Source: Selenomonadaceae bacterium (lineage in GTDB: Bacteria; Bacillota; Negativicutes; Selenomonadales; Selenomonadaceae). Taken from it: a stretch of DNA of 64,000 bases. Below the pieces are notes generated by a model. That model saw only the letters and a program-made list of their open reading frames with translations, did not search any database and had not been told where the DNA came from. Shown here one piece after another: positions 2,766 to 57,333 of this stretch. How positions within the stretch are numbered: the first letter of the stretch is position 1; every line of letters starts with the position of its first letter. A program made the position numbers and the translations under genes. The stretch spans positions 17,229 through 81,228 of the forward strand of contig JAFXTD010000028.1 of NCBI GenBank assembly GCA_017535925.1. Direction: 5' to 3'.

Positions 2766-2845
2766 AATCAGCCACTTCCTTTCTACAGATTCTAACGTGA
2801 TTATAATCTTTCGACGTGATTAATAACTGAATTTTGGGCAACAAA

Positions 2846-2904
2846 ATTAGTGGTCAGTGATTGGCGATGAGAAAAAACTAATCCCTAATCACTAACCACT
2901 AATT
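2846..2904. repeat. tandem heptanucleotide repeat hairpin
   Basis: ATTAGTG GTCAGTG ATTGGCG .. loop GAAAAAA .. CTAATCC CTAATCA CTAACCA CTAAT. The arms are imperfect complements. Lies immediately 3' of rnpB. Confidence 0.8.
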
Positions 2905-2906
2905 TT

Positions 2907-3329
2907 GTCGACAGGCAGTCAATAAGCCGGATTCTGTTAGTGGCAATCATTTATCTTGCTTGAACGTTGCCGCTCAAGTTTAGCACCTTACCCGAGATGT
3001 CAGCGAGCAACCTCATCCATCTCCTATTTAGGCTTGCTCCGCGTGAGGTTTATCAGGCTTGCCGATTACTCGACAACCGGTAGGCTCTTACCCTGCCTTT
3101 TCATCCTTACCGTTCTATTAATTAGGAATTAGGAGTGAGGAATTAGTAATGAAATAACAATTCCTAATTCCTAATTCCACATTCCTAATTGTTAGAAAGG
3201 CGGTTTTCTTTTCTGTGACACTGTCTTTAAGATTACTCTCACCGGACGTTATCCGGCACGCTGCTCTGTGGAGTCCGGACTTTCCTCGTCGAATTGCTTC
3301 GCCGCGATTGCCTCTCCTGCCTGTCTACG
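2907..3329 (-). ncRNA. rnpB: RNase P RNA, bacterial type A
   Basis: The minus strand carries GAGGAAAGUCCGGACUCC (3270-3287) and ACAGAAUCCGGCUUAU (2922-2937). P1 pairing is GACAGGCAG/CUGCCUGUC. Also present: CAGUGUCACAGAAAAGAAAACCGCC and GGUAAGGAUGAAAAGGCAGGGUAAGAGCCUACC, as in type-A RNAs. Ends are approximate. Confidence 0.9.
3117..3191. repeat. heptanucleotide repeat hairpin occupying helix P12 of rnpB
   Basis: AATTAGG AATTAGG AGTGAGG AATTAG - loop - AATTCCT AATTCCT AATTCCA CATTCCT AATT, bracketed by the P11 strands (CCUUUCUA / UAGAACGG on the RNA strand). Confidence 0.8.
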
Positions 3330-3335
3330 TCAAAA

Positions 3336-3364
3336 ATTTTACCACTATAATTTTTTCGTGTCAA
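3336..3364 (-). promoter_or_regulatory. sigma70-type promoter of rnpB
   Basis: Minus strand TTGACA (3359-3364), 17-nt spacer, TAAAAT (3336-3341), about 7 nt before the predicted P1 5' end. Confidence 0.55.
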
Positions 3365-3422: not shown

Positions 3423-4574
3423 CTATTTACGCGAACGCATCCAAGGCGGAATGTCAATTTCGACGCCGCCGGGCGGATTGTTCGTGTTGCCGAAGTCGGC
3501 ATTGAAAGTACCGAAAGGCGAACGAGGTTGTTCTTGAGGTCTGCGCGGTTGAGTTTGTTTTTCTTGGAAAGTCGGGCGAAGAGGCTCGCGTTCTCTGACG
3601 GGTTCTTCCTCTTCTTCCTCGTCGAAGCGCGTGGCAATGACCGTGACGCTGACTTTGTCGCCAAGAGATTCGTCGACGCTGACACCCCAAATAATTTCGG
3701 CGTCGGGGTGAGCTGCCTCTTGGACGGTTGTTGAAGCCTCGTTGACTTCCATCATTGAAAGCGAATCGGTCGCGCCCATGATGTTGAGCAGGACGCCGCG
3801 TGCGCCTTGCAAACTCGTCTCAAGCAACGGAGAATCAATCGCCGCTTTGACTGCGTCGACGGTTGCATTTTCGCCCGAAGCCTCGCCGATACCCATTAAA
3901 GCCGAGCCTGCATTGCTCATGATTGATTTGACATCCGCGAAGTCCAGATTGACCAGACCCGGCACCGCGATTAAATCCGAAATGCCTTTGACGCCTTGAC
4001 GCAAAATATCATCGGCGATTGTGAAAGCTTGCGTCATTGGAGTTTTCTTGTCGACGACTTGGAGCAAACGGTCGTTCGGAATTGTTATAATCGTGTCGAC
4101 GTTGCGCTTGAGGTTTTCGATTCCGATATCGGCATTTTTCTTGCGCTTGGGTCCTTCAAAGGTAAACGGACGAGTCACGACGCCGACAGTCAACGCGCCG
4201 ATTTCTCTTGCACATTCCGCAACAACCGGAGCCGCACCCGTGCCCGTGCCGCCGCCCATGCCCGCCGTGATAAACACCATGTCCGAGCCGCGCAGGGCGT
4301 TGATAATGTCTTCGCGACTTTCCATAGCCGCTTTCTGTCCGATTTCGGGACGAGCTCCCGCGCCCAAGCCTCGGGTAAGTTTCTCACCGATTTGCATTCG
4401 CTTTGGTGCCAACGCGGTTAAAAGTGCTTGAGCGTCGGTGTTCACGGCGATAAATTCCACGCCTTCCAAGCCCAAAGAAATCATTCGATTGACAGCATTA
4501 TTGCCGCCGCCGCCCACGCCGATTACTTTAATCTTCGCGAACTGGTCAAGAGTGTTGTCATCAAGTTCAATCAC
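3423..4574 (-). CDS. ftsZ: cell division GTPase FtsZ
   Basis: [17 protein letters not shown], tubulin signature [11 protein letters not shown], acidic/proline-rich C-terminal tail. Confidence 0.97.
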
Positions 4575-6693: not shown

Positions 6694-7692
6694 TTGAAAC
6701 TCGGTAAAATGATTGCGGCGGGCGTTTTGAGTTTGAGCTTGTTGACCGGCACGAGCTTTGCCGCCCCCGCTTGGCAACTTCCCTCGTCGGGAAAAGTTTT
6801 CTACGACGAAGCCAAACAGATTTACATTTCGAACACCATGAAAAGGCTTTTGAGCGAGAACTTCAAAGTAAACTTTTCCGCGCCAAACGGATGGACTTAC
6901 GAAAAATTTTCTGTCGGCAGCGTAAACATTGAGCGGCTTGTAAATCCCAAGCAGAAAAAATCTTCGCGGGTCGTCTTGCAACTTCACGGCGGCGGCTACG
7001 TAGGCAAACTTAGTGATTGGTATCGCGACTTCGCCGTCAAGCAGGCTGTCATGACCGAAGCGCGCGAAGTTTACATGGTTGATTATCGACTTGCGCCCGA
7101 ACATGTTTATCCCGCTGCCCTCGACGACGCCGAAAAAGCTTACGAGGAACTTTTGAGACGCGGTGTCGGTTCGGAAAATATTATCGTCTTCGGAGATTCT
7201 GCCGGCGGAAATTTGGCGTTGGCATTATCGTTGCGCTTGAAAGAAAACAGATTGCCGCAACCCGCAATGTTGATTTTGATTTCGCCGAGAACAACCTTTG
7301 AGCCCGATTCTCCCTCACGAACCGCAAATGCCGACCGCGATTTGGTTTTGGGCAAAATTAATACCCAAATGTATAATGCGGTTTTCAATCCCGTTTACGC
7401 CGGACAAACTCCTTTGAATGACCCGCACCTCTCACCGATTTATGCCGATTTAAAAAATCTTCCGCCGACGCTGATTCAAATCGGCGGCTATGAACTTTTC
7501 GTCGACGAGGGAATTGAGCTGCTCAAAAAGGCGACGGCTGACGAACTCAACGTGACGTTATCGGTTTATCAAGGCATGCCGCACGATTTTTCAATTCTCT
7601 TGCCCGAACTTGACGAGAGCGTAAAATCTTTCATTGAGATAAAAAATTTCGTGAACCTCTACATGCCGAAAGACAAAGGTCAACAAAAATAA
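6694..7692 (+). CDS. secreted alpha/beta hydrolase, Abhydrolase_3 (HSL-like esterase/lipase) family
   Basis: Signal peptide; oxyanion HGGGY; nucleophile elbow GDSAGGNLA. TTG start assumed. Confidence 0.85.
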   Translation: MKLGKMIAAGVLSLSLLTGTSFAAPAWQLPSSGKVFYDEAKQIYISNTMKRLLSENFKVNFSAPNGWTYEKFSVGSVNIERLVNPKQKKSSRVVLQLHGGGYVGKLSDWYRDFAVKQAVMTEAREVYMVDYRLAPEHVYPAALDDAEKAYEELLRRGVGSENIIVFGDSAGGNLALALSLRLKENRLPQPAMLILISPRTTFEPDSPSRTANADRDLVLGKINTQMYNAVFNPVYAGQTPLNDPHLSPIYADLKNLPPTLIQIGGYELFVDEGIELLKKATADELNVTLSVYQGMPHDFSILLPELDESVKSFIEIKNFVNLYMPKDKGQQK

Positions 7693-8886: not shown

Positions 8887-9395
8887 AATTCGGCAACGAC
8901 CTCACTAAGCGGGCGACGGTCTTCGTGGCGATTGGAAGGCTTTGCACCTTCGGCGGGATAACCAATCGGGAAGACGGCGATTAATTCATAATCCTGCATT
9001 TCGGGGAAAAGCTCTTTGAGTTTGGGCGCGTCGAAGTAGCCGACCCAAGTCGTGCCGAGCCCCTCGTCTTGCACAGCCAACATCAAATGCGTTGCGACAA
9101 TCGCCGCGTCAATCTCCGAAAAATTTTTGTTGTCGAACGGTCTGTCGAAGGCTCCGTCTTTGTGCGCTCCTACGACGAATGCCAATGCCGCACCGAACGT
9201 GTAATTTGTTGTCTGCTTGAGTTTGTCGAGGGCTTCGGGCGATTTGAGTGCCCAGATAGTGTAGCGTTGAAGATTTTTCGCCGTCGGTGCCGCTATCGCC
9301 GCCTGCAAGATGTGTTCGATTTTTTCCGGCTCAATCGGCTTGTCCGTCAACTTCCTGCACGAATAACGCGCCTTTGCCAATTCCAAGAAACTCAT
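8883..9395 (-). CDS. nitroreductase family protein
   Basis: Start at MSFLELAKARYSCRKL (ATG 9395, behind AAAGGAGA). Nitroreductase fold signature. Confidence 0.8.
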   Translation of the reverse strand: MSFLELAKARYSCRKLTDKPIEPEKIEHILQAAIAAPTAKNLQRYTIWALKSPEALDKLKQTTNYTFGAALAFVVGAHKDGAFDRPFDNKNFSEIDAAIVATHLMLAVQDEGLGTTWVGYFDAPKLKELFPEMQDYELIAVFPIGYPAEGAKPSNRHEDRRPLSEVVAEL

Positions 9396-11039: not shown

Positions 11040-12266
11040 TTATGCTTGAGCACTCTCGACAAACCGCCAATGATAGCCGCCGGCTGTTCGATTAATTTCC
11101 TTGCAAGCTCGACGAATATGCGTATCTCTAATTTTGAGATAACGTGCCGCTTCATTTATCGACTCGTAAATTTTGTCGGTCTCAATGCAAATCACAGGTT
11201 TTTTCGTTGAATTCTTTTCGGAAAGTTTGGCTCTGTGTTCGTCACTCAAATGCCGCGCAGTCGTCGAAGAATTTTCTTCCGCTGTTTTGTCCGTATACTT
11301 CCAACGAAGACCGCCCGCCGTTTGAATAATTTTTTTGCAGGCTTTGGTTATGGAACTGCGGAGAATTTTATGAACACGTTCCGCTTCCGAAAGACTTTCG
11401 AAAATTTCACCCGTATCAATGCATGTAACGCGGCGAGATTTTGTCGTCTTGCCGTGAATTTTTTTTTCTGTATCGATTTTAACTTCCGTTGCTTCGTCGG
11501 GCTTATCGACAAACCGCCAATGATAGCCCGCCGCTGTCCGTTCGGGATTTTTGCAAGCATTTGAAATCCCCGTTCGATTTTTAAGATTATGAGCACGAGC
11601 TGCCGCTGTCAATGATTCAAATATTTCTTTTGTCTCAACGCAAATGACGGCTTGTTTATCTTTAGTTTCGGTGTCGTCTGCAAATTTCCAGTGAAAGCCG
11701 CCGGTAGTCTTGCGTTTATTTTGGCATACGCGATGAATACTTTGAAGACTGAGATTATTATGACGCGCCGCCTCCGTTACCGAATCATAAATTATTCCCG
11801 TTTCTATACATATCACTTTACGTTTATTCGGAATCACAGCAGATAAATGAGCTTTTTCTTCTTCCGTGAGCGGTCTGCCGGGTTTGCCTGTTAAACTTTG
11901 CGCGATAAGGTCTTTTGACTCGTTGCTGTGTTTCATACCGAAACGAGTCATTTTTGTGACGCTTTCGGGAGTTCGTTCCCAACCGCCTTCGCCGCCGTCA
12001 GTGTTATTGTAGCCGTTCGGCCAGCGGGTGCCGCGTGATTTAATGAAATGTCTTTCCCAACAGTTGAGCTCCTCTTGGCTTTCACAAACTTTCAAAATCG
12101 CCGTAGAAAAATTTTCTGCACCGTGTTTGCGAATCGCTCTGCCGATGTTCGACGTTTTGCAACGTTTGTGCTCTTTGAAGCGTTCCTCGACAGTTTGCGT
12201 CGTCTGCCCGACATATTCCTTGTCGTTTGTTCCGTCGATTAGCAGATAAATTACTCCGAATGCCAT
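11040..12266 (-). CDS. free-standing GIY-YIG homing-endonuclease-like protein with NUMOD3-like and four tandem HTH-like DNA-binding modules
   Basis: N-terminal GVIYLL...YVGQT...R..EH...E...N GIY-YIG core. NUMOD3-like KHSNESKDLIAQSLTGK / LSDEHRAKLSEK. Four ~50-aa repeats of the form V.CIETG.I[YF][ED]S..EAAR......I..ACK...[RK]TAGG[YF]HW[RK][FY]. Confidence 0.85.
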   Translation of the reverse strand: MAFGVIYLLIDGTNDKEYVGQTTQTVEERFKEHKRCKTSNIGRAIRKHGAENFSTAILKVCESQEELNCWERHFIKSRGTRWPNGYNNTDGGEGGWERTPESVTKMTRFGMKHSNESKDLIAQSLTGKPGRPLTEEEKAHLSAVIPNKRKVICIETGIIYDSVTEAARHNNLSLQSIHRVCQNKRKTTGGFHWKFADDTETKDKQAVICVETKEIFESLTAAARAHNLKNRTGISNACKNPERTAAGYHWRFVDKPDEATEVKIDTEKKIHGKTTKSRRVTCIDTGEIFESLSEAERVHKILRSSITKACKKIIQTAGGLRWKYTDKTAEENSSTTARHLSDEHRAKLSEKNSTKKPVICIETDKIYESINEAARYLKIRDTHIRRACKEINRTAGGYHWRFVESAQA

Positions 12267-12530: not shown

Positions 12531-12624
12531 GGAGTGGTACTCAAGCTTGGTGACGAGGCCTCACTGCTAATGAGGTAGGCTGCATAAAAGCGGCGCGGAG
12601 GTTCAAATCCTCTCCACTCCGCCA
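12531..12624 (+). tRNA. tRNA-Ser (anticodon GCT)
   Basis: Acceptor GGAGTGG/CCACTCC; anticodon stem CCTCA/TGAGG with loop CTGCTAA; long variable arm; T arm GGAGGTTCAAATCCTCT; encoded CCA. Confidence 0.93.
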
Positions 12625-13975: not shown

Positions 13976-14104
13976 GTGAGCGAAAACCCGGCCGCACAAT
14001 TTAGTGATTAGTGATTAGCTGTTAGCGGTTAGCTGTTAGAATTCTAATCACTGACCACTGACCACTTTAATTGGACAAGCAAAGAAAAAGTAGAAGAAAC
14101 TTTT
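13976..14104. repeat. chimeric repeat: MITE left fragment + heptamer array + MITE right fragment
   Basis: 13976-13998 GTGAGCGAAAACCCGGCCGCACA matches the element's left part. 14001-14066 is TTAGTGA x2, TTAGCTG, TTAGCGG, TTAGCTG, loop, CTAATCA CTGACCA CTGACCA. 14077-14104 GCAAAGAAAAAGTAGAAGAAACTTTT matches the 3' half of hairpin 3. Confidence 0.7.
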
Positions 14105-17388: not shown

Positions 17389-18960
17389 TTGGTATTCAAG
17401 AGAAAAATTTTGGGGGTGAGTGTTATCGCTATTACAATCGCAGCAGTCATCATTGCAATAATTTTCGGCGCAGCGGGCGGCTACATGGCGCGCAAACGAT
17501 CTGCCGAAGCTCAAATCGGCTCGGCGGAAGAAGAGGCACGGCGTATCGTCGACGAGGCGCGAGAAAAATCCAACGCAGAAAAGAAAGAAACCATTCTTGA
17601 AGCTAAGGAAGAAATTCATAGAATGCGGCAGGAACTCGACCGCGACACCAAAGAACGCCGCAACGAACTCTCTCGGCAAGAACGGCGCGTCGTTCAAAAA
17701 GAAGAGAACTTGGACAAAAAGCTGGATTCATTGGAGAAAAAAGAAGCACTTCTAAGCAAGAAAGAAGCACGGCTTAATGAGTCTCAAGCTCAACTTGACG
17801 CAATGCAGGAAAAGGAAGACGCGGAACTTGAACGCATTGCCGAATTGAGCAGAGACGAAGCACGAACTATTTTGATGAATGAGGTTGAAGAAAGTTTAAA
17901 ACACGACAAAGCATTACGAATTAAAGAGTACGAGGTGCAAATCAAGGACGAGGCAGATAAAAAAGCGCGAGACATTTTGAGCACGGCAATTCAACGTTGC
18001 GCGGCAGACCATGTGGCGGAAACGACGGTATCGGTTGTGGCTCTTCCAAGTGACGACATGAAAGGCAGAATTATCGGGCGCGAAGGCAGAAATATTCGCA
18101 CGCTTGAAACTTTGACGGGAATTGATTTGATAATCGACGACACGCCCGAAGCAGTTATCCTTTCCGGCTTTGACCCCGTCAAAAGAGAAATCGCCCGCGT
18201 CGCCCTTGAGAAATTAATTTCGGACGGAAGAATTCATCCCGCACGAATTGAAGAGATGGTCGAGAAGGCAACCCGTGAAGTCGATAACCGCATGAAAGAG
18301 GCGGGCGAACAGGCAACCTTCAAAGTCGGCGTTCACGGAATTCATCCCGAACTTGTCAAACTTTTGGGGCGGCTGAAGTACCGCACGAGCTACGGACAAA
18401 ATGTTTTGAATCACTCAATCGAAGTGGCAATGCTTGCAGGCATCATGGCGAGTGAATTGGGCGTTGACGTAAATTTGGCAAAGCGAGCCGGACTCCTCCA
18501 CGACATAGGCAAGGCGGTTGATCACGAAGTCGAAGGTCCTCACGTGACAATCGGCGCAGACTTGGCAAAACGTTATCGCGAAAACAAAAACGTCATCAAC
18601 GCCATTGCCTCACATCACGGCGACGTAGAGGCGACTTCGGTCGAGGCAGTCTTGGTTGCGGCGGCCGACGCAGTTTCGGCAGCAAGACCCGGCGCACGTC
18701 GTGAAAGTTTGGAAATGTATCTCAAGCGACTGAAAATGTTGGAAGAAATTGCCGAGAGTTTCGAGGGCGTCGAACGTTGCTTTGCGATTCAAGCGGGGCG
18801 TGAGATTCGTGTCATGGTTAAGCCCGACAAAGTGGACGACGCGGCGGCAGTGACGCTTGCCCACGAAATCGTCAAGAAGATTGAAAAAGATTTGGATTAT
18901 CCCGGACAAATTCGGGCGACAATCATTCGCGAAGTTCGAGTCGTCGACTACGCAAAATAA
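17389..18960 (+). CDS. rny: ribonuclease Y
   Basis: N-terminal TM helix, coiled-coil, KH domain ([15 protein letters not shown]), HD domain (LLHDIGKA). The exact start is uncertain; a GTG at 17416 is possible. Confidence 0.93.
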
Positions 18961-18973
18961 TAAACCAATAAGA

Positions 18974-19041
18974 AATGCGTAATGCGTAATGCGTAATCAA
19001 AACGTCTTCATTGCGCATTGCGCATTATTCATTCCGCATTG
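18974..19041. repeat. tandem heptanucleotide repeat hairpin
   Basis: (AATGCGT)x3 - loop - ATTGCGC ATTGCGC ATTATTC ATTCCGC. The arms pair with G-U wobbles on the + strand RNA. Sits between the rny stop and the next RBS. Confidence 0.8.
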
Positions 19042-19063
19042 TTTTTCAAAGGAGGTTAGAGCG

Positions 19064-19591
19064 GTGTTTGATTTTCTGAAGAAGACGAAGAAACCCAATC
19101 CCGACGCAAGCCGGTTGTTGGCGTCGATTTTGGTAGTGTTTCCTGCAGTTCAATCAGTAACTTACGATTCAAAAGGCGAGACGCTTGAATTCTCCTTTGC
19201 ATTGAACGGGAAATTTTCTCACGACGACTTGGAAGATTTTTTATCGTATGTGGCGGAGTCTTTGGAAACTTATCATCATTTGGAAGGCTTGGGCGGCACG
19301 AAAATTCAACTCAATGTCGAAGGCGTTTACGGCACCTGTTTTTTGCATGTTCGACGAGACATGGCAACGTTGACTTGTCGGGAGCTTTCGCTTCTGACCG
19401 AATTGGCAGCAAATTATTTCGGCGACCGCTTGATTGAAGAATACGACAATAACTTTTTCCCTGACGAAGAATATTTGATAGCGCAAGAAAATTATTTGGA
19501 GCAATGCTTGAACAACATGCGGCAACTGCGTGTTGAAGGGCGGCTGGTCGGCGTGCGCGAGCATGAACGGGTTGTGGTGTATTCGCGCTAG
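19064..19591 (+). CDS. hypothetical protein between rny and ymdB
   Basis: GTG start 8 nt after AAGGAGG (VFDFLKKTKKPNP...). No family recognised. Confidence 0.55.
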   Translation: MFDFLKKTKKPNPDASRLLASILVVFPAVQSVTYDSKGETLEFSFALNGKFSHDDLEDFLSYVAESLETYHHLEGLGGTKIQLNVEGVYGTCFLHVRRDMATLTCRELSLLTELAANYFGDRLIEEYDNNFFPDEEYLIAQENYLEQCLNNMRQLRVEGRLVGVREHERVVVYSR

Positions 19592-19607
19592 GAAAGGCGG
19601 GATTTTT

Positions 19608-20399
19608 TTGCGAATTTTAATGGTCGGTGATGTTGTCGGGAAACCCGGCAGATATTTTTTTATGGAGCAAACGCCCGAACTCAAACAAATTCACAAAATC
19701 GATATGGTCGTTGTCAACGGCGAGAACGCGGCTCACGGCAAAGGTTTGACGCCGAATATTTTTGACGAGCTGATTCGCGGCGGCGCGGACGTCGTGACAA
19801 CAGGCAATCACATTTGGGACAATCCCAAAGTTTTGGAAATTATCGACACGGAACCTTTCCTGTTGCGCCCCGCAAATTATCCCGAAGACACGCCCGGCAG
19901 AGGCTTTTGCATTTTTCCCGTCGGCAAGAAAAAAGTCGGCGTGATTAACATGGCGGGAAGAACTTTCATGCAACCGCCAATGGACGACCCTTTCCGCCTC
20001 GCCGAAAAAATTTTGAACTTTATCGAAAAAGATTGCGACGTGATTTTGGTTGACTTCCACGCGGAGGCGACCAGCGAAAAACTTGCCTTTGCCAATTACC
20101 TCGACGGACGAGTTACGGCGGTTGTCGGAACACATACTCATGTTCAAACGGCAGACGAAAAAATTTTGCCGAAAGGCACCGCCTATATCAGCGATTTGGG
20201 CATGGTCGGCGCGGAGAATTCGATATTGGGCATGACGATTGAGCCCGTGATAAAAAGATTCGTGACGGGGCGACCGAGCAAATTTGATGTTGCCGAAGGA
20301 GCCGCCGTGTATTGCGCCGTGCTGATAGACACAGACAACAAAACGAACAAAGCAACCAAAATCAAAAGACTGCTTATCAAAGACAATCCTCATCGTTGA
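19608..20399 (+). CDS. ymdB: YmdB-like metallophosphoesterase (2',3'-cyclic-nucleotide phosphodiesterase family, TIGR00282)
   Basis: LRILMVGDVVGKPGR...VVVNGENAAHGKG...TTGNHIWD. TTG start assumed. Confidence 0.88.
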   Translation: MRILMVGDVVGKPGRYFFMEQTPELKQIHKIDMVVVNGENAAHGKGLTPNIFDELIRGGADVVTTGNHIWDNPKVLEIIDTEPFLLRPANYPEDTPGRGFCIFPVGKKKVGVINMAGRTFMQPPMDDPFRLAEKILNFIEKDCDVILVDFHAEATSEKLAFANYLDGRVTAVVGTHTHVQTADEKILPKGTAYISDLGMVGAENSILGMTIEPVIKRFVTGRPSKFDVAEGAAVYCAVLIDTDNKTNKATKIKRLLIKDNPHR

Positions 20400-25816: not shown

Positions 25817-27802
25817 ATGGCAATGGCAGTGAAAAACAATTTGGCGGCGACGCAAATTCTCAATCAGCTCAATCAAAACAATTCGGAGTTGAGTCGGAGG
25901 TTGGCAAGAGTTTCGACCGGCATGAAAATCGTCAGTGCACAAGACGACGCTTCGCAATACGCCATTTCCGAGAGGATGCGTGTAAAAATTCGCGCCCTCG
26001 ACCAAGATTTGCAGAACGTTCAAAACGGTTCGTCGATGCTTAAAAATGCTTCGGGCGGCGTGGAAAGAATTGTCGACATCTTGCGCGAAATGAAGGCGAA
26101 GGCAATCAACGCCGCAAACGATTCGAACACCGACGAAGACCGCCAAACCATTCAAAAAGAAATTACGCAGCTTATGAAAAGCATTAACGACGTGGCACTG
26201 GGCACCGAATACAACGGCAAGCGATTAATCGACGGCACCTACGACCCGCGAACGGAATACGCCGATATTCCCGGCACGGCTCTGCAGGTTGCAAAAGCTT
26301 TAATGTCTTCTTTGGACAAAACGACCTTATCGGGCGAGGCGGCTCTCAACGAGGCGATAAATTACGCTTCGGGCGGCAAGTTCGAAACCAAAGACGCTCT
26401 TATCGGTCAGTTCATGAACGACTTAAACAATTCCTCGTCCAGCACAGACTTTTTGAAAGATTATTGTGACATTATTCTCGGCAACGCGGACACAGGCGCA
26501 ATAACCGGCAAAGACGCGGGCGGCGACACGATTAAAACTGCCGAATCGATTGTTCCCGAAAAAATTGCCGTCTCAAGTTGGGGGCTGCCGACAAGCGACA
26601 CGACGATTAACGGCTTGACGATTCATTGGCCGACGGCAGGCGCGAACGGAAGTTTCACTGCCGAAGAGGAACACATTTTGAAAGGTTTGAATTCGGATTG
26701 GATTGAGCAATGCATTAATCTGGTCACAGAGTCTTTCGGCTTGAGCTTCACCGAAGACGGCACCTCTGTCAATGAAATCAGCGTTACATTTGAAGATGAC
26801 AGCAGCAATAATCGTTTGGCGGCTGTGGGACATTCTTATTCACTTTCAACCGGCAAAGCCACGAGCTTAGAGTTAATCGTCAACATGAACTACTACAGTT
26901 CCATTGACATGACGAGCGAGGACGGCAAAAGTTCAAACCCCAACTCAATGTATCTTGACCGAACGCTTGCACACGAATTCACGCACGCGCTCATGGCGGC
27001 GAACATTGATAACTTCAATGCGCTTCCAAAGTACATAAAAGAAGGCACGGCGGAACTCGTTCACGGTATCGATGATGTACGCAACCTTACAGGCTTGTTG
27101 GATGATAAAACCACCCTTGAAAAAGTTTTTGCGGAAGAAACATTGACTAATGAAAAAGATGAAGCTTACTCCGCCGGCTACATGCTCCTGCGCTACTTGG
27201 CAAAGCAAGGGCAAGACTCAATTAACGCAACCAACTCTCAAGCAACTGTCCTTAGCAGAAAATATAATCCGCTTGTCATTCAAGACGGGACTCAAGCCGG
27301 GCAACACAACAACTTTTATATCAAGGACATGCAGACGAATTCTTTGACGGCGGGAAAAATTTTTAAATTCGGAACGGAAAGTGCCTCGAACTTGATTAAC
27401 GCAAACGACCTCGCCCGCTACAATGCTTTGGACAACGACCCCGACAAACAAGCAGAGTGGCTTGAAACTCTTCGGGCGGCGGCAAATATGACCGTCGACG
27501 ATATTTCCGTCACGACCGTCAAGAATGCAAACATTGCGATTCGTGTGCTCGACGGCGCACTTGAATACGCCCTCGACAACGCCACGACAATCGGTTCATA
27601 TCTCACGCGGTTGGAATACGACGCCGACAACGTGACGATTTCAAGAGACAACGTTCAAGCCTCCGAATCCGTGATTCGCGACGCCGATATGGCTAAGGAA
27701 ATGACGGCTTACACCAAAGCAAATGTTTTGGCTCAAGCCGCGCAGGCAATGCTCGCTCAAGCCAATCAAAATCCCGCGAACATTTTAAGTTTGTTGCAAT
27801 AG
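25817..27802 (+). CDS. flagellin with an inserted HExxH zinc-metallopeptidase domain (flagellinolysin-like)
   Basis: Canonical flagellin N (LAATQILNQL...RLARVSTGMKI...QDDAS) and C (RLEYDADNVT...DADMAKEMTAYTKANVLAQAAQAMLAQANQNPANILSLLQ) domains. Central ~370 aa contain LAHEFTHAL (HEFTH = 26972-26986) plus EGTAE about 20 aa downstream. Confidence 0.9.
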   Translation: MAMAVKNNLAATQILNQLNQNNSELSRRLARVSTGMKIVSAQDDASQYAISERMRVKIRALDQDLQNVQNGSSMLKNASGGVERIVDILREMKAKAINAANDSNTDEDRQTIQKEITQLMKSINDVALGTEYNGKRLIDGTYDPRTEYADIPGTALQVAKALMSSLDKTTLSGEAALNEAINYASGGKFETKDALIGQFMNDLNNSSSSTDFLKDYCDIILGNADTGAITGKDAGGDTIKTAESIVPEKIAVSSWGLPTSDTTINGLTIHWPTAGANGSFTAEEEHILKGLNSDWIEQCINLVTESFGLSFTEDGTSVNEISVTFEDDSSNNRLAAVGHSYSLSTGKATSLELIVNMNYYSSIDMTSEDGKSSNPNSMYLDRTLAHEFTHALMAANIDNFNALPKYIKEGTAELVHGIDDVRNLTGLLDDKTTLEKVFAEETLTNEKDEAYSAGYMLLRYLAKQGQDSINATNSQATVLSRKYNPLVIQDGTQAGQHNNFYIKDMQTNSLTAGKIFKFGTESASNLINANDLARYNALDNDPDKQAEWLETLRAAANMTVDDISVTTVKNANIAIRVLDGALEYALDNATTIGSYLTRLEYDADNVTISRDNVQASESVIRDADMAKEMTAYTKANVLAQAAQAMLAQANQNPANILSLLQ

Positions 27803-27840: not shown

Positions 27841-27928
27841 AATTCCCAATTTAGTGGTTAGTGATTAGTGGTTAGTGGTTAGAAAAACAATTCCCAATTC
27901 CCAATTCCCAATTCCTAATTCCTAATTC
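27841..27928. repeat. two adjacent non-complementary heptamer arrays
   Basis: TAGTGGT TAGTGAT TAGTGGT TAGTGGT, then AATTCCC x3 and AATTCCT x2. Confidence 0.8.
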
Positions 27929-28025: not shown

Positions 28026-31000
28026 TTATTCGAACTGCTGGGTCGCATGGTTGACTTTGGCAGTGGTGCCGTCGTCGAGAACGATGTTGACTTCAGCAGT
28101 GCTGTTGACTGTGAGCGAGCTGCCGTCGGTGAGTTTGATCTCAACGCCGGTTGCGGTGATGTTCGTGCCGTCGAAGTCAATCTGGTCAAGCGTCACGCCG
28201 AGCTGGATAACGTCGCCGTCATTCGCGCTCATGATTGTGTCGTTGCCGTTGTATCCTTCGAAGTAGAACTCGTTGTGACCGGTGCCGCCGTACATTACGT
28301 CGTTGACGATGCCGGAGCCGCCCCACATGCTTGCGTTGCCTGCGCCGCCGTAGATGGTGTTGGCAATTTCGTTACCTGCAGCCAAGACTTCCGCATTGGA
28401 GCCGCGTGCGTCGACAACAGTGAACTTGCTGTTGCTGAAGTCTACGCCGTTGCCGTAATCCGGAGCGTCGAGCCAAATCTCGGTCGAAGCAATGTCGCCG
28501 ACTTTGACGGTCGCGCCGTTAGCGTCGTCGGTTGCGCAGTAGAAGTCGACATAGGAGTTGTTGACGGTGACTTCCGTCGCCGCAATCTGGGCAACAGTCT
28601 CGAACTCGGTGCCGCGGTCAACCAAGAATTCATTGCCTGCCGCATTTTCGATAGTGACTTTTTCGGTTGCGCCGCCTTCGCCGCGGTTACCCTGGATAGC
28701 AAGCGTTACGCTGCCGTCAGAGTTGGCTTTGATGTCGGTTACGCCGTTTTCGCCCATATCGATCGTGAGTGCGTCGAAGGTTGCGGTATTGCCGCCGCCG
28801 TTCTCGATGAACTCGAAGCCGCTGATGGTGTTCTGCGCGCCGTTGTTGATACCAAGTACGAAGAATTCGGTGGAGCCCATCTTGTCTTCGCTGGAGGAGC
28901 CGACCAAGTTGTTCTTGCCGCCGCCGCCGTAGAGTGAGCCTTCGCCCGTGCCGGCAACGAGAGTTTCATCTGCAGAGCCGCCCTTGAACAAGGTGTTGCC
29001 GCTGCCGCCGATGAGGCTGTTCATGCCGTCGAACGTTGCGTTGTCGTCGCCGACTTTGCTTTGAGCCCAATCGCCGTCCATGTCAACGGTAACTTCGCCG
29101 GTGTATGCGCTGAAGTCAACCGCGCCGTTCGGTGCTTTGTAGAAGTTGGGAGCATCTTCGCCGACGGTGATTGTGCCGCCTTCGACAGCGATAGCCGCTT
29201 TGATCGTCTCGTTGTTGTTGACAAAGAGTTGTTCGACGAAGCCTGCTTCGGTTGTCACAGCTGCGGTTGCGCTGAACTTGTCGTTCTTGTTGCTGACAAC
29301 GAGGTTTGTGCCGTCGAAGGAAACGTCGGTGTCTGCTGCCGCGAGATCAACATTGAGGATATCGCCGTTGAAGCCGCTGACCAAACCGGTGATGGTGTCT
29401 TTGCCTTCGCCGAGGATAATCGTTGCTGCGCCGCGGTCTTCAGTTTCGGCATCGAGGATAATCTGGTTCGAACCCGCGCCTGCGTCGATAACATCGTTTT
29501 CGCCGCCGAAGAGGGTGTCGTTGCCGGTGCCGCTCTTGAGGCTGGAGCCGCCGAGTTTGTCGCTCTCTCTGTTGCCGATAAGGATGAGGTCTTCCGCAAT
29601 GTCGCTTGCGTCGAGAACGCCGCCTTCTTTATCGGTGAAGCCGACCAACTGACCGTAGTCGTCGCCGTAGGTGTCTTTGCCGTCTTTGTAGCCGAACAAG
29701 CGAATCATGTTCTGGTGGTTGCTGTTCAAGTTGTTGACGGTGATTCTGGTCTTGCGGTCTGTACCTTCTTTGCGGGATTCGTTCGCGTCGAATTCGTCGC
29801 GGTCGATAGCAGTAATTCCGCCGTCTTCGAAGAGCAACAACTCGTCTTGAATTGCATCGACGATGTTGTCAGCATACGGAATTTCAGGATCGTGGAGGAC
29901 AACGCCGGAAATGCCGGTTTCGTCGTAGTTGTTGAGGACGATGTTGGCATTGGCTGCCGCGTAGGTGTGAATCTTGTCAACGCTGTTGGTATTGGCAGTG
30001 CCGCCCATGTCAATGACGGTCTTCATGTTGGCTTGATGGACAACTTTGTCATTTTCCATGCTGCCGCCAACCCAGATCGTGTCATGACCGGAGCCGACAG
30101 TGATGTTGACTTGACCGTATTCGTCGTCGCCCTGCATGATAACCGCGTCGCCGTGGTTGCCGAGGACAATGTTCTTTTCGCCTTCAGCGGTATCAGTGAC
30201 CCAAGCAACGCTCTTGCCGGCGGTGGTGCTGAGTTTGCCGGTCGAGGTGCCGCCGGCATCAAAGATGACAAGACCCGAAGCTGCGTCGGTGGAACGATCC
30301 AAATTGTCGTTGTTGGATTCACGGAAGATTTGCTCTGTCGGGAACGGATCGAGACCAAGCCAGTTGTCTGCGTACATGATTTTGCCGGCTGTGACTTGCG
30401 AATAGAACAACGGATAATCATGATCGGTCACGAAAGAGCTGAGGGTATCTTCTGCCTTGGTGTTGTAGCCGATAATTGCTTCGTTGGTGAGGTTGGCAGT
30501 CGCAATGTCTTCTGCGGAATAGGTTGTGCCGTTGACAGTGATGGGACCTTCGGAGACTTGGAGAAGTGCATCTTCGTCAAGTCCGGTGACTACGCCGCCT
30601 GCAGTGATTGTGACGCCGTCTTTATCATTAACAACTCTGTAAATTTTGCCGTTGACGGTGTAGATGTCAGGGATTCCGTCGGTGCTGTCGCTTGCAAAGA
30701 CAAACGTCGTGCCTTCGTCGGTGCTGCTGACAACGTCGCCGTCGACAAGACCGCTGACTTCGGCAAGACCGGTGCTGGTGTCGCCCGTGACGGTAATGTC
30801 ATTGGCGGCAGTGTAAGTGAGCGTATCGCCGTTAATATCGATTTCGTAAGTGCCGTTGCGGAGAACGATTGAATCTTCAACACCGTCAAGACCCGTAATT
30901 ACACCGTTGAGGTCAAAGGTAAAGGTGTCATCTGTATCCGCTGTAAGAGTATTTCTTAAAGGAACGTTTGCGGGAACGATTGCGCCGTCGCTCATATTGC

Positions 31001-32792
31001 TGATTGTGAATTGAGGATCGGTCGGGTCGGTAACGTCGGAAAGAGTGACCGTGAAGCCTTCGGTATCCGCAATAGCAGGAACAGCAATCAAGTTGGCAGC
31101 GGTTTCAGTGAGGTAGTAGAGGTCGAGGTCTTCGGCACCGTCGGGCAACGTGACAGAGTCATCTTTCGATTCGAATACGAAGCCTTTAATGATTCCGTTT
31201 GCGGCGGTTATGAAGTGACCGTTGCCGGTGTAGCCGTAGGTGAATCCGTTGACGTTGTCGGTGACGTAGCCGGTCTTGTCGCCGGTGGTGAGCTGATCGA
31301 TTCCGGAATATGCGGCATAGACAGTTTCGCCTGCATCAACTACGAGTTGTTGATCGCCTGCCGCGCCGCCGATAAGCGTGAAGTCGCCGTCGGAAACAGT
31401 GATGTATTCCAAGGTGCCCTTCTTGCTGATAACAGGCAAGCCTTCTTCTTCGCTGTCAGCATCCGGGCCGGTGACGACCAATTTGTCGCTCGTGCTGGTG
31501 AGGTTGTAGAGACCGTCGACGCTTTCGATAACGCCGTCTTCGTCGAAGGTGATATTGATTTCTTTACCGCCTGCGAGAGCAGATTTGATTGTGAAGTCTA
31601 ACGTCGTATCGCCGATTGTAACTTCTGAGGTATTTGCAATGGTGAGCGTGTAGTTGTTTGCATTCTTGGTAACGGTGTAGCCGCTGCCGTCAACTGTAAC
31701 GAGCTTGGTGAGATCTTCGTCATAGACGTTGATATCTTGGTTATTGGCAACGGTGATCGAGTCGCCGGTAACATCCAAGACAAAGCCTTCGACCGAGCCG
31801 TTGCTATTGAGCGTGAAGTAAGCTTCGCTGTTTGCGCCGAGAACGTACTCATACGTCTTCTTGGCAATCATGATGGAGCCGCCTGCTACGTCGTTTGAAT
31901 CGGGATCGGTGGGCGGAACGAGTTTTTCGGCGTTGGCTGCCGAAGTAACGTTGATAACGTCGGTGCCGTCTTGAGCGAGGTCGCTGAGGTCAAGTTCAAT
32001 GCCGTCTGTGCCGTAAGTGAATACGACTGTGCCTGCGGCAACGTTCTTAATCTTGACTTCGTTATCGTCGACTGTAAAGTTGTAGTCGTTCTCTACGGCA
32101 ACGGAGCCGCCTTCGGTTCCTGCAGTGACTATGCTGTCAAAGCTTGTTTCGTCGCCTGTCCAAACGAGATCGTCTTCACTTTCGGGCGGATCAAAGCCGG
32201 TAACGGTAACGGTGATGTCGCCTTTGGTGTAGGCGTCGGCATTGTTGGCATCGTATTCACCCATAGTGAATTGACCTTCGCCTGCGTCAATCTTGCCGCC
32301 TGTGAGGTTGCCGTTGTTCAACGTGAACGAGAGACCTGCGCTGGCATTGAGTTCAAAGCCTTTGCCGTTTGCTTTTTCGAGAACGAGACCGGCGACTCTG
32401 GCAAGGGTCGAAATGCCGTCGAGGTTGTTCAAAGCAAGTTCAGTAACTTCATAGCCGCTGGCATTTGTCGTTGTTGTTGCGCCTGTTTGAGAGAAGAACA
32501 CGCCTGCAGTGGAAGTGCTGTTGGTGAAAGGATTGGTACCATTTTTCCAAGCATAGTATTTGCCGTCGGAAGCCAAATATCTATCGGCGTTTTGTTCGGT
32601 GATGGCATCCGCCGTGTTGGCAACCTTATTGAGTTCTGCATCGCCGTATTCGACGTCTTCATCCCAACTGTCTGCGCCTTTGCTGGTGTCGCCGTCGACG
32701 TCCAAGTTAAAAGTGCTTACACTATCCGGCTCGCCTGCCGGTACAAATTCCTCAAGCTCGAAATCGTCGAGGACGTTGAAAAAATCATTCAT
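28026..32792 (-). CDS. giant acidic RTX-like repeat exoprotein (1588 aa)
   Basis: No signal peptide. D/T/G/N/V-rich with repeated ~100-aa modules. The C-terminal third has Gly/Asp nonapeptide-like repeats (GTGNDTLFGGENDVIDAGAGSNQI; YGGAGNASMWGGSGIVNDVMYGGTGHNEFYF). Confidence 0.85.
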   Translation of the reverse strand: MNDFFNVLDDFELEEFVPAGEPDSVSTFNLDVDGDTSKGADSWDEDVEYGDAELNKVANTADAITEQNADRYLASDGKYYAWKNGTNPFTNSTSTAGVFFSQTGATTTTNASGYEVTELALNNLDGISTLARVAGLVLEKANGKGFELNASAGLSFTLNNGNLTGGKIDAGEGQFTMGEYDANNADAYTKGDITVTVTGFDPPESEDDLVWTGDETSFDSIVTAGTEGGSVAVENDYNFTVDDNEVKIKNVAAGTVVFTYGTDGIELDLSDLAQDGTDVINVTSAANAEKLVPPTDPDSNDVAGGSIMIAKKTYEYVLGANSEAYFTLNSNGSVEGFVLDVTGDSITVANNQDINVYDEDLTKLVTVDGSGYTVTKNANNYTLTIANTSEVTIGDTTLDFTIKSALAGGKEINITFDEDGVIESVDGLYNLTSTSDKLVVTGPDADSEEEGLPVISKKGTLEYITVSDGDFTLIGGAAGDQQLVVDAGETVYAAYSGIDQLTTGDKTGYVTDNVNGFTYGYTGNGHFITAANGIIKGFVFESKDDSVTLPDGAEDLDLYYLTETAANLIAVPAIADTEGFTVTLSDVTDPTDPQFTISNMSDGAIVPANVPLRNTLTADTDDTFTFDLNGVITGLDGVEDSIVLRNGTYEIDINGDTLTYTAANDITVTGDTSTGLAEVSGLVDGDVVSSTDEGTTFVFASDSTDGIPDIYTVNGKIYRVVNDKDGVTITAGGVVTGLDEDALLQVSEGPITVNGTTYSAEDIATANLTNEAIIGYNTKAEDTLSSFVTDHDYPLFYSQVTAGKIMYADNWLGLDPFPTEQIFRESNNDNLDRSTDAASGLVIFDAGGTSTGKLSTTAGKSVAWVTDTAEGEKNIVLGNHGDAVIMQGDDEYGQVNITVGSGHDTIWVGGSMENDKVVHQANMKTVIDMGGTANTNSVDKIHTYAAANANIVLNNYDETGISGVVLHDPEIPYADNIVDAIQDELLLFEDGGITAIDRDEFDANESRKEGTDRKTRITVNNLNSNHQNMIRLFGYKDGKDTYGDDYGQLVGFTDKEGGVLDASDIAEDLILIGNRESDKLGGSSLKSGTGNDTLFGGENDVIDAGAGSNQIILDAETEDRGAATIILGEGKDTITGLVSGFNGDILNVDLAAADTDVSFDGTNLVVSNKNDKFSATAAVTTEAGFVEQLFVNNNETIKAAIAVEGGTITVGEDAPNFYKAPNGAVDFSAYTGEVTVDMDGDWAQSKVGDDNATFDGMNSLIGGSGNTLFKGGSADETLVAGTGEGSLYGGGGKNNLVGSSSEDKMGSTEFFVLGINNGAQNTISGFEFIENGGGNTATFDALTIDMGENGVTDIKANSDGSVTLAIQGNRGEGGATEKVTIENAAGNEFLVDRGTEFETVAQIAATEVTVNNSYVDFYCATDDANGATVKVGDIASTEIWLDAPDYGNGVDFSNSKFTVVDARGSNAEVLAAGNEIANTIYGGAGNASMWGGSGIVNDVMYGGTGHNEFYFEGYNGNDTIMSANDGDVIQLGVTLDQIDFDGTNITATGVEIKLTDGSSLTVNSTAEVNIVLDDGTTAKVNHATQQFE

Positions 32793-35199: not shown

Positions 35200-35299
35200 C
35201 TAATCGCCTCGTTAAAATTTTTTTTATCATAGCAGAAAAATTTTTCGTTGCATAGCGGCTTGACTTCCTTTTTCGACGGTGTTTATATTTCGCGGGGTG

Positions 35300-38173: not shown

Positions 38174-38179
38174 ACCCAA

Positions 38180-38947
38180 ATGAATTACAAGCTCTGGGAT
38201 TTTTTCAAAGAGTTGCAGACGAATTACGACTTGGTAGACTTGACTCACCCGCTCGACAACGACAGCCCTTATTGGTCGGGAATTCCCGAAGGCTCCGTTG
38301 AACTTTGCAAGACTTGTTTCGATTGGGGCAACCCGATGCTCGAATGCCTGATTCAAACTTTTAAATTCCCGGGACAATTCGGCACGCATATCGACTTCCC
38401 CGCTCACTTCATCAAGAATGCTCCGCGCAGTGAGGCTTACGGCGTGAGCAACATGATTTATCCTCTTTGCATCATTGACATTTCGGCGAAGGTTGCAGAG
38501 GATATTCACTACGCTGTGACGGCTGACGACATCAAGGCTTACGAAAAAATTTACGGCGCAATTCCCGACGGCGCGTTCGTTGCACTTTACAGCAATTGGG
38601 CTCGGCATTGGCCTGACATGAATAAAATTTCGGGTATCGCCGAAGACGGCAGCGAAAATTTCCCCGGCTGGTCTCTCGACGCGCTCAAATATATTTATGA
38701 AATTCGGAACGCCGCCGCAAACGGTCACGAGACACTTGATACCGATGCTTCCGCAGAGGCGTCTAAGGCAGGCGATTTGGCTTGCGAACGTTATATCCTC
38801 TCGAAAGGCAAACTCCAAGTCGAAGTCATGACGAATCTTGACAAGGTTGCTCCCGCCGGCGCAATTGTCTTTGTCGCTTGGCCGAACATCACAGGCGCAA
38901 CAGGTTTGCCCGCCAGAGTTTTGGCTATCACTCCAAAAAAATCATGA
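38180..38947 (+). CDS. putative-cyclase / kynurenine-formamidase-fold protein (PF04199-like) embedded in the R-M operon
   Basis: GQFGTHIDFPAHF metal-binding motif of the cyclase family. ATG lies 6 nt after the res stop (RBS GGAGGAG), and the stop overlaps the mod start (ATGA). Confidence 0.75.
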   Translation: MNYKLWDFFKELQTNYDLVDLTHPLDNDSPYWSGIPEGSVELCKTCFDWGNPMLECLIQTFKFPGQFGTHIDFPAHFIKNAPRSEAYGVSNMIYPLCIIDISAKVAEDIHYAVTADDIKAYEKIYGAIPDGAFVALYSNWARHWPDMNKISGIAEDGSENFPGWSLDALKYIYEIRNAAANGHETLDTDASAEASKAGDLACERYILSKGKLQVEVMTNLDKVAPAGAIVFVAWPNITGATGLPARVLAITPKKS

Positions 38948-42475: not shown

Positions 42476-42507
42476 CCCGTCGTTCGGATTGAGCGGCGGG
42501 TTTTTTT
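42476..42507 (+). terminator. rho-independent terminator
   Basis: CCCGTCG...CGGCGGG stem followed by T7. Confidence 0.6.
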
Positions 42508-42584
42508 AGTGGTTAGCTGTTAGTGGTTAGCTGTTAGAAAAATATTTTCCCTAACCGCTAGCCACTAATCACTAACCACTAATC
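42507..42584. repeat. tandem heptanucleotide repeat hairpin
   Basis: TAGTGGT TAGCTGT TAGTGGT TAGCTGT - loop - CTAACCG CTAGCCA CTAATCA CTAACCA CTAATC. The last unit contains the efp stop codon. Confidence 0.8.
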
Positions 42585-43140
42585 AAGCGCGTTCGATGTA
42601 AGAGCCGGTGCGTGTGTCGATTCTCAAAACGTCGCCTTCATTTATAAAGAGCGGAACACGAACGACGTAGCCCGTTTCAAGCGTGGCGTTTTTGGTCGCG
42701 CCGGTAGCAGTGTTGCCTTTGACGGCAGGTTCGCATTCGGTGACTTTGAGTTCGACGCTGTTGGGCAAGTTCACGCCGATAATGCGCCCCTTGAACGTCT
42801 GCAGATTGACTTCCATATTTTCCATGAGGTAGTTGAGTGCACTGCCGAGTTGTTCTTTGTTGAGTTCAATCTGTTCGTAAGTCTCAACGTCCATGAAAGT
42901 GTATTGCCCGTCTGATTCGTAGAGGAATTGCATTTTTGCGGTATCAAGACGAGCGGGCGGCATCTTTTCATTCGGGTTGAAAGTTCTTTCGACGACCGCG
43001 CCCGTCTCAACGTTTTTAATTTTCGTGCGGACAAACGCCGCGCCTTTGCCGGGCTTGACGTGTTGGAACTCGACGACTTGCCAAGCCATGCCGTCAATCT
43101 CAATCGTTAATCCCGTTCTGAAATCGGTACTTGAAATCAT
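42583..43140 (-). CDS. efp: translation elongation factor P
   Basis: 185 aa; [17 protein letters not shown]...[13 protein letters not shown]. Confidence 0.96.
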
Positions 43141-48183: not shown

Positions 48184-48246
48184 AAGGAACCGGGAACGAG
48201 GAACAAGTTTTTACAATTCCTAATTCCTCATTCCTAATTCCTAATT
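48184..48246. repeat. heptamer array
   Basis: AAGGAAC CGGGAAC GAGGAAC - loop - AATTCCT AATTCCT CATTCCT AATTCCT AATT. The right block is the reverse complement of 50167-50192 and of 54790-54823. Confidence 0.8.
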
Positions 48247-50140: not shown

Positions 50141-50166
50141 GGATAACACCTCCAAAAAATCAATGT

Positions 50167-57214: not shown

Positions 57215-57313
57215 GGAGCCGCTTTGTCAATTGGGAATTGGGAATGGGGAATGGGGAATGGAAAAACAATTACTAATTCCTAATTCCTAATTCCTAATTG
57301 AATTTGCGGCTCC
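57215..57313. terminator. long composite hairpin: GC clamp GGAGCCGC/GCGGCTCC enclosing heptamer arms; probable bidirectional terminator
   Basis: CAATTGG GAATTGG GAATGGG GAATGGG GAATGG - loop - AATTACT AATTCCT x3 AATTG. Followed by T-runs, between convergent genes. Confidence 0.65.
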
Positions 57314-57333
57314 AAAATTTTTTTCGATAAATT

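Follow-up and report, generated by a model that had tools for sequence, protein, structure and literature searches.

How does a hypervariable repeat that is scattered through a bacterial genome come to reside inside an essential ribozyme? The question is raised by rnpB, the gene for RNase P RNA, in a 64,000-nt stretch of a Selenomonadaceae bacterium (assembly GCA_017535925.1, contig JAFXTD010000028.1, positions 17,229 to 81,228; the whole stretch is called the window below). An earlier note, made from the letters of the window, had proposed that helix P12 of this RNA is built from a heptanucleotide repeat that also fills intergenic regions. As far as we have found, heptamers in RNase P RNA had previously been described only in heterocyst-forming cyanobacteria. 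We find that the repeat does form an insertion in the apical loop of P12, that it lengthens this helix as a single hairpin in an otherwise intact class A RNA, and that the presence, length and unit sequence of the extension differ among close relatives whose RNAs are otherwise very similar.

Position and fold of the P12 insert

When the whole window was searched with cmscan, the covariance model of bacterial class A RNase P RNA (RF00010, RNaseP_bact_a; gathering score 100 bits) matched 2907-3324 on the minus strand at 284.1 bits (E = 8.5e-92), with model positions 1-367 covered completely and no truncation. The type-A assignment of the earlier note is borne out by this full-length match, as is its lower boundary of the gene at 2907, while the upper one moves from 3329 to 3324. 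Outside the P12 insert every segment of the model aligns at high posterior probability, and the conserved ribozyme elements are all intact: the P4 strands (GAGGAAAGUCCGG ... ACAGAAUCCGGCUUA), J11/12 (CACAGAAA), J12/13 (GAUGAAAAGG) and the P13 and P14 hairpins.

The alignment opens a 71-nt insertion (3120-3190) between model positions 136 and 137, that is, in the apical loop of P12. The hairpin that bears the insertion is P12 in standard nomenclature because it lies between the conserved J11/12 and J12/13. The earlier note had put a repeat hairpin at 3117-3191, inside the RNA and inside P12; a placement outside the RNA or outside P12 would have refuted it, but the covariance model placed the insert in the P12 loop, and the proposed span is correct to within 1-3 nt of the repeat part as delimited by Tandem Repeats Finder (TRF). 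A slip in labelling leaves that conclusion unchanged: the flanking strands CCUUUCUA and UAGAACGG, which had been called P11, form the basal part of P12 in the RF00010 consensus structure.

The non-repeat basal strands of P12 occupy 3191-3203 and 3105-3119, and the remainder of the helix is a repeat-built extension. Its two arms have the TRF consensus units AATTAGG (4.4 copies, 3120-3150) and AATTCCT (4.6 copies, 3159-3190), which are mutually reverse complementary, and the apex of the hairpin falls at ~3147-3163. The complete P12 (3105-3203) folds as one hairpin with a minimum free energy of -35.6 kcal/mol, compared with -15.8 +/- 3.2 kcal/mol for dinucleotide shuffles (z = -6.2), and none of 200 shuffles folded as well. 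Since the two arms are complementary, the insert only makes P12 longer, as a coaxial hairpin with periodic bulges. A role of this hairpin as an internal terminator was considered and rejected, as no U-run follows it.

The arrangement resembles that of the intervening sequences in helices 25 and 45 of 23S rRNA, which are excised by RNase III and are not tandem heptamers: in both cases a peripheral helix of an essential RNA ends in an additional hairpin, which some close relatives have and others lack and which is tolerated because its site is at the surface. By extension of this likeness, the P12 helix might be excised, with RNase III as one candidate, and the RNA would then consist of two pieces held together by tertiary structure. 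The shared topology, a sporadic hairpin at a peripheral helix tip of an essential RNA, and a helix of 32 pairs, the longest uninterrupted stretch being 10 bp, would suit such processing, but an internal loop interrupts the helix about every heptamer, so that it is not an ideal RNase III substrate, and no fragmentation has reportedly been seen in the cyanobacterial counterparts; we regard excision as quite improbable.

In type-A RNase P RNA, P12 lies at the periphery of the specificity domain, as a helix whose distal end points into the solvent and not towards the surfaces for tRNA binding and catalysis. It is not known to contain a universally conserved nucleotide, and the helix is absent in a few organisms. 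Its role has been described as ‘sometimes dispensable (e.g. in cyanobacteria)’ (PMC2858038).

Host of the window

The ftsZ gene (3423-4574, minus strand) lies immediately upstream of rnpB. Its product shares 88-92% identity with FtsZ from rumen metagenome-assembled genomes (MAGs) labelled Selenomonadaceae, Selenomonadales or Quinella, and 66-83% with FtsZ from Selenomonas, Mitsuokella, Megamonas and Propionispira. These identities, together with the presence of rny, ymdB and genes for flagellin, a phosphotransferase system (PTS) EIICBA protein and mannitol-1-phosphate dehydrogenase, therefore indicate that the host is a Quinella-related rumen member of the Selenomonadaceae (Negativicutes). The earlier note had judged the gene content, including its PTS genes, not to look cyanobacterial, rightly so, and a cyanobacterial origin of the window is ruled out by the FtsZ similarity. 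Quinella is placed in Selenomonadaceae by its genome paper and by GTDB (PMC9585023); NCBI taxonomy files it under Veillonellaceae.

The insert in a second strain and the integrity of rnpB

The exact FtsZ protein of the window occurs on seven contigs of public assemblies, two of which (L094 and L095) were compared with the window. L094 matches it exactly throughout rnpB. L095, which represents another strain and derives from another sample and assembly, has nine differences in the rnpB core, yet its 89-nt P12 interior (in this clade, the sequence between the conserved ...AACCGC and GUAAGG...) is identical. The insert is not an assembly artefact, then, because a distinct strain from another assembly carries it unchanged. 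The earlier note had raised the possibility of an assembly artefact; mis-joining of short reads through repeats is extremely improbable as its form: short-read assemblers have trouble with tandem heptamers and may have got the number of copies slightly wrong, but besides the identical interiors of L094 and L095, seven other contigs from different studies have a repeat-built P12 extension at the same position.

The gene itself appears to be maintained. Its orthologues in relatives score 269-295 bits against RF00010, and the pair TTGACA ... TA(A/G)AAT is kept upstream of rnpB in these relatives. Two double compensatory changes separate the window from L095 in one helix of the RNA (GAGAUG/CAUCUC vs GAAAGG/CCUUUC). 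Because of these compensatory changes, the kept promoter and the terminator, we take rnpB to be under selection, and its RNA, by the compensatory changes, to be selected for structure; rnpB of the Quinella-related rumen Selenomonadaceae is, in all likelihood, functional. The alternative is that the invaded rnpB is a decaying or redundant copy and that a working one lies elsewhere in the genome, which our inspection of 64 kb would leave room for. Against it stand the full-length 284-bit match with intact conserved regions, the conserved promoter, the compensatory substitutions between the two strains and the ftsZ-rnpB arrangement, which holds the only rnpB found in two relatives (L002 and L003). 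Bacteria also normally carry a single rnpB, and we consider a redundant copy very improbable.

The compensatory block lies at 3008-3040 (minus strand), in the P15-P17 region, and separates the window rnpB from L095, L002 and L003. As L095 combines a different block with an identical P12 insert, recombination within rnpB may have occurred. BLAST of rnpB against plasmids returned only short core matches in unrelated taxa.

Heptamer arrays across the window

The insert belongs to the same dispersed repeat family as the intergenic arrays of the window, as the earlier note had held on the basis of the letters. Allowing up to two mismatches, the motif AATTAGGAATTAGG is found 25 times in the window where 0.36 occurrences are expected, and TRF and a period scan agree with this picture: the scan found 18 period-7 arrays totalling 528 nt and, in the same pass, no arrays of period 8, 9, 10 or 11. 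All 20 arrays lie outside a greedy set of open reading frames (ORFs) that covers 86% of the window, and rnpB is the sole gene within the window that they have invaded. At least six unit families coexist (AATTAGG/AATTCCT, TTAGTGG/CCACTAA, TTAGCTG/CAGCTAA, AATGCGT/CATTGCG, AATTGGG/AATGGGG and CCCCTGA). The majority of the arrays have a complementary partner with which they make up a hairpin, either between cistrons or at the 3' end of a gene, although one-armed intergenic arrays occur as well (54790-54817 and 43665-43722).

Three of these places deserve mention, the first and the third being especially instructive. First, a GC-clamped terminator hairpin (57215-57316) contains a TRF array at 57229-57299, and its topology is that of the P12 tip: an array at the tip of a pre-existing hairpin. 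The sequence ATTACTAATTCCT starts the 3' arm in three hairpins, those of the window P12, of P12 in L090 and at 57267; this shared start would be the only hint of copying between loci. Second, a hairpin of AATGCGT/CATTGCG units, which belongs to a different unit family of the same repeat system, lies between rny (17389-18960) and ymdB (19530-20399), a widely conserved pair. A hairpin of almost identical units directly follows ftsZ at a locus of a Quinella MAG (L005).

Third, the terminator of rnpB is itself a heptamer hairpin, with a predicted fold of -31.5 to -37 kcal/mol. It is likewise a heptamer hairpin in L095 and L002 (6902-6975), and the counterpart in L003 lies at 7533-7575. Heptamer-free relatives have a GC-rich hairpin, AAAACGTCGC...GCGGCGTTT (ACGTCGC...), at this position, and the same conserved sequence lies downstream of both terminator types; in the window the arrays have replaced the ancestral rnpB terminator hairpin. 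In L090 the rnpB terminator is of the ordinary kind and an AATTAGG array follows directly after it. Downstream of the terminator, at ~2808-2842 (minus strand), is a conserved sequence of ~34 nt, AATTCAGTTATTAATCACGTCGAAAGATTATAAT, which ends in a -10-like TATAAT, is also found downstream of rnpB in L002, L003, L085-L088 and L091, and separates the rnpB terminator from an NlpC/P60 peptidoglycan hydrolase gene (2097-2765), of which it is probably the promoter or operator.

P12 in relatives

For comparison we assembled 17 further rnpB loci: two by ftsZ synteny (L002 and L003, the only ones so obtained, as the ftsZ loci of relatives mostly lack rnpB), 13 by a scan of metagenome contigs with a 23-nt rnpB pattern, and L094 and L095. 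Outside P12 the rnpB cores of the clade are 83-94% identical to that of the window; three outliers (L082, L083 and L089) have 60-67% core identity and short P12 helices, and represent more distant Selenomonadaceae-like rnpBs.

Within the clade, P12 is either a minimal hairpin with an interior of 10-11 nt or carries an extension of 23-94 nt, built from five differing heptamer units (AATTAGG, GAGTTAG, GGGAACA, GGGACAA and CAGCTAA; Table 1). The earlier note had called for rnpB of related genomes to be compared for presence and length of the insert, and its view of the repeat as hypervariable holds among these relatives: four have the minimal form and the others are extended. Each of the seven extended forms that were folded (the window and six relatives) gives a single hairpin, z ranging from -3.2 to -6.5. 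Minimal and extended forms are interspersed when the rnpB cores are placed on a neighbour-joining tree, and the P12 extension must therefore have been gained, lost or replaced repeatedly. The ancestral P12 was presumably short, since it is short in L082, L083 and L089 and has an interior of only 10-11 nt in the close relatives L003, L084, L085 and L086. One extended form stands apart: in L087 (~9270-9310) P12 is lengthened by period-8 direct units (AAGATTGC-like) and not by two complementary 7-mer arrays, and no heptamer arrays were found in the flanks of that locus.

In L002 (GGAGGTA/GGAGTTA), L090 (AATTAGG), L088 (CAGCTAA) and L081 (GGGACnn), as in the window, the P12 units recur in heptamer arrays at other places along the contig. 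No heptamer array was found in the 36.7 kb of flanks of the four minimal-P12 contigs, compared with 19 arrays in ~90 kb of non-redundant insert-bearing contigs, a count that the window dominates; with a density of 0.21 arrays per kb, a Poisson calculation gives a probability of ~5e-4 for finding none in 36.7 kb. Nor were heptamer arrays found at the more distant loci of Selenomonas, Mitsuokella, Megamonas and Propionispira.

Comparison with known repeat systems

The heptamers in cyanobacterial RNase P RNA are STRRs, that is, repetitive sequences made of short units repeated in tandem. Vioque is said to have found STRR heptamers lengthening P12 in all heterocystous cyanobacteria examined and unrelated STRRs in closely related strains, and removal of the STRR reportedly did not abolish activity in vitro; the units of STRR1-3 were reportedly given by Mazel and colleagues in 1990 as CCCCAGT, TTGGTCA and CAACAGT. 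The former work is Vioque 1997 (NAR 25:3471), a title listed among the references of PMC4046671. The present case is like the cyanobacterial one in having tandem 7-nt units that are placed inside P12 and extend this helix as a hairpin, in having similar arrays of several unit families dispersed between genes, and in having close relatives with unrelated units or none while the rest of the class A RNA is unchanged. Such unrelated or absent units in close relatives therefore point to recent, repeated invasion. It is unlike the cyanobacterial case in its host, an anaerobic rumen Negativicutes of the Selenomonadaceae/Quinella group, in its P12 unit AATTAGG/AATTCCT, which is not among the units reported for the classical STRR1-3, and in an rnpB terminator that is also a heptamer hairpin. 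Window arrays of TGACCAC and CCCCTGA come near the reported STRR1-3 units without being identical to them. Retention and dispensability have reportedly been found for the cyanobacterial inserts, and would hold for the window insert by analogy. Overall, the window case matches every structural and evolutionary STRR feature that was tested and departs from STRRs only in taxonomic restriction and unit identity; it is therefore an analogue in another phylum and falls outside the sequence families of the cyanobacterial STRRs.

Repetitive extragenic palindromic (REP) sequences, bacterial interspersed mosaic elements (BIMEs) and elements like miniature inverted-repeat transposable elements (MITEs) are also palindromic, dispersed, hairpin-forming and intergenic, and often lie at terminators. 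Unlike these, the window copies vary in unit sequence and number, and by eye we saw no fixed-length consensus element or target-site duplication at the window arrays.

Heptamer simple repeats have been described in Xanthomonas (GGGAATC) and Nostoc PCC 7120 (GGGGA(T/C)T) (PMC4692102), and TAACTGA repeats in Beggiatoaceae, Cyanobacteria and Bacteroidetes (PMC4679880). The window arrays share with all of these the 7-nt unit, over-representation in non-coding DNA, variable copy number and a scattered distribution across phyla, and the window units GGGAATT and GGGGAAT closely resemble those of Xanthomonas and Nostoc. TAACTGA arrays, however, take the form of direct repeats located immediately upstream of start codons, while those of the window are mostly paired hairpins at gene 3' ends. 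A term search of the two papers found no mention of RNase P or rnpB. Among loci that came in through FtsZ similarity we also observed dense period-7 arrays, often as complementary hairpin pairs, in unrelated lineages: at five loci of Chloroflexia MAGs (L027, L028, L030, L040 and L063; ten arrays in 13 kb of L028), one of Thermomicrobiales (L055) and one of Paceibacterota (L071); none of these heptamer-rich fragments carries rnpB. STRR-like heptamer systems thus seem to be scattered over several phyla.

Full-text literature searches on Selenomonas, Quinella and Negativicutes turned up no account of heptamer repeats or of inserts in rnpB, and the Quinella genome paper (PMC9585023) mentions neither. 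Within the searchable literature, the heptamer-repeat extension of P12 described here is apparently the first outside cyanobacteria.

Origin and maintenance of the insert

What, then, brought the heptamers into rnpB and lets them stay? We think it likely that heptamers have invaded the solvent-exposed tip of P12, that the invasion is tolerated and close to neutral, and that its only constraint is to keep a hairpin. The tip would have been colonized by the heptanucleotide tandem arrays that populate the intergenic hairpins and terminators of the genome, and these arrays would form and be replaced in the DNA itself, through the process that also gives rise to the intergenic ones; replication slippage of 7-nt units is a likely route, with copying or conversion between arrays as a possible second. 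They may persist in rnpB because the P12 tip, as known from the structure of type-A RNase P, faces the solvent and points away from the tRNA-binding and catalytic surfaces. It may be one of the few sites in an essential RNA that tolerate such growth, with selection acting only to keep the two arms paired. By analogy with the cyanobacterial STRR inserts, the extension would be transcribed, retained in the mature RNA and near neutral for catalysis, and the mechanism is probably passive tolerance.

Several observations weigh against this reading or fit it no better than others. All seven independent inserts are hairpins, although some intergenic arrays are one-armed, which fits a constraint on pairing and also a selected function. 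The insert is identical in two strains with nine core differences, and is thus not hypervariable on the shortest timescale. A comparison of sense and antisense hairpin stability was mixed, with five loci more stable in the sense and four in the antisense direction, and P12 slightly antisense. Finally, the part of the genome inspected is the 64-kb window, which bears on a second, uninvaded rnpB copy.

The extension might instead be adaptive, either as a binding platform for a protein that recognizes heptamer hairpins or as an element that stabilizes the RNA; the level, localization or turnover of RNase P RNA would then be tied to a factor acting on heptamer hairpins at mRNA 3' ends. Each insert-bearing rnpB does retain a well-paired hairpin, the insert is identical in two strains whose RNA differs elsewhere, and the same units form terminator and intercistronic hairpins, such as those of rny-ymdB and of rnpB itself. 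Close relatives, however, function with a P12 interior of 10-11 nt, the unit sequence varies between relatives so that no single sequence-specific binding site is conserved, and presence of the extension follows the genome-wide repeat load and nothing specific to rnpB. The occasional dispensability of P12, as in cyanobacteria (PMC2858038), likewise argues against an adaptive role. The cyanobacterial STRR insert, too, was reportedly dispensable in vitro, and on balance we find an adaptive extension unlikely.

A further reading concerns the arrays themselves more than their fate in rnpB. Heptamer arrays might be more than slippage-prone junk: a process dedicated to them could generate them, starting from the tips of hairpins that are stable and transcribed (terminators and P12), in scattered lineages, namely heterocystous cyanobacteria, Quinella-like Selenomonadaceae and, apparently, the Chloroflexia, Thermomicrobiales and Paceibacterota represented by MAGs. 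We consider this reading unlikely; if such a process exists, the repeated capture of the RNase P P12 tip in two phyla would be a signature of its target preference. The tolerated, nearly neutral invasion remains our preferred account of the insert.

Other features of the window

The coordinates of rnpB, its P12 elements and the heptamer arrays, and the P12 interiors of relatives, are collected in Table 1.

Table 1. Features of rnpB and of the heptamer arrays in the window, and P12 interiors of rnpB in the window and in related contigs.
Feature	Position or length	Strand	Basis or remark
rnpB (class A bacterial RNase P RNA), 418 nt with insert	2907..3324	-	RF00010 284.1 bits, full-length
Sigma-70-type promoter of rnpB, TTGACA-17-TAAAAT with extended TG	3336..3364	-	11/12 consensus matches
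rnpB terminator, TTAGTGG-type and CCACTAA-type heptamer hairpin, flanked by A-run and TTTTGTT	2843..2906	-	
Complete helix P12, 99 nt	3105..3203	-	RF00010 consensus structure; single-hairpin fold
5' arm of P12 extension, ~4.6 heptamers (AAUUAGG / AAUGUGG type in RNA)	3159..3190	-	TRF period 7
3' arm of P12 extension, ~4.4 heptamers (AAUUCCU / CACUCCU type in RNA)	3120..3150	-	TRF period 7
Intergenic AATTCCT/AATTAGG array	48215..48246		TRF, period scan; outside ORFs
Further AATTCCT/AATTAGG copies	27888-27928, 50162-50198, 54790-54817		
GC-clamped terminator hairpin GGAGCCGC...GCGGCTCC and T-run, interior AATTGGG and AATTCCT arrays	57215..57316	+	fold -55 kcal/mol
Heptamer hairpin AATGCGT / CATTGCG, then TTGTTTTT, between rny and ymdB	18971..19045	+	
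Other heptamer arrays	14001-14066, 27851-27882, 42506-42585, 43665-43722, 53565-53596, 55419-55465		
P12 interior, L003, L084, L085, L086	10-11 nt		minimal hairpin, no repeat units
P12 interior, L088	23 nt		one CAGCTAA-like unit
P12 interior, L087	39 nt		period-8 units
P12 interior, L091 = L093	59 nt		AATTAGG / CTCCTAA
P12 interior, L081	about 65 nt		GGGACAA
P12 interior, L092	71 nt		GGGAACA / CTAGTCC
P12 interior, L002	83 nt		GAGTTAG / CCTAGTT
P12 interior, window	89 nt		AATTAGG / AATTCCT
P12 interior, L090	94 nt		AATTAGG-type variant

Three other regions of the window were noted. First, a free-standing ORF of 408 aa (11040-12266, minus strand), adjoining tRNA-Ser(GCU) at 12531-12624 (plus strand), has GIY-YIG, NUMOD1/3 and I-TevI-like DNA-binding domains and looks like a chromosomal homing endonuclease. 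Second, an acidic ORF of 1588 aa (28026-32792, minus strand), rich in D, T and G and with RTX-like GGxGxD-type motifs near its C-terminus, has no Pfam match; its region has a G+C content of 0.52-0.56, compared with ~0.48, and it adjoins a long flagellin gene (661 aa) at 25817-27802. Third, a type III restriction-modification pair occupies 35279-40809 (plus strand), with a res helicase/endonuclease gene at 35279-38173, an N6/N4 methylase gene at 38878-40809 and a putative cyclase ORF between the two.

Significance

The heptamer extension points to the P12 tip as a general safe harbour in the ribozyme, and shows that cyanobacteria are not the sole hosts of STRR-like repeat systems. In this clade, lineages that have the repeats stand beside sisters that lack them, at ~90% FtsZ identity, which offers a comparative handle on the origin of heptamer arrays; if a dedicated process exists, such sister genomes would let the responsible gene or genes be found by comparison of presence and absence. 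Heptamer-rich MAGs are the window's genome, RGIG2762 and Quinella ruminal_MAG_489, and RGIG6124 and RGIG7246 are heptamer-free sisters. There are practical consequences as well: the length and sequence of rnpB are used as a marker and in RNA annotation, and a hypervariable P12 can mislead pattern-based gene finders. Quinella-like bacteria have been linked to low-methane sheep (PMC9585023), and for these uncultured bacteria the hypervariable P12 could serve as a strain marker.

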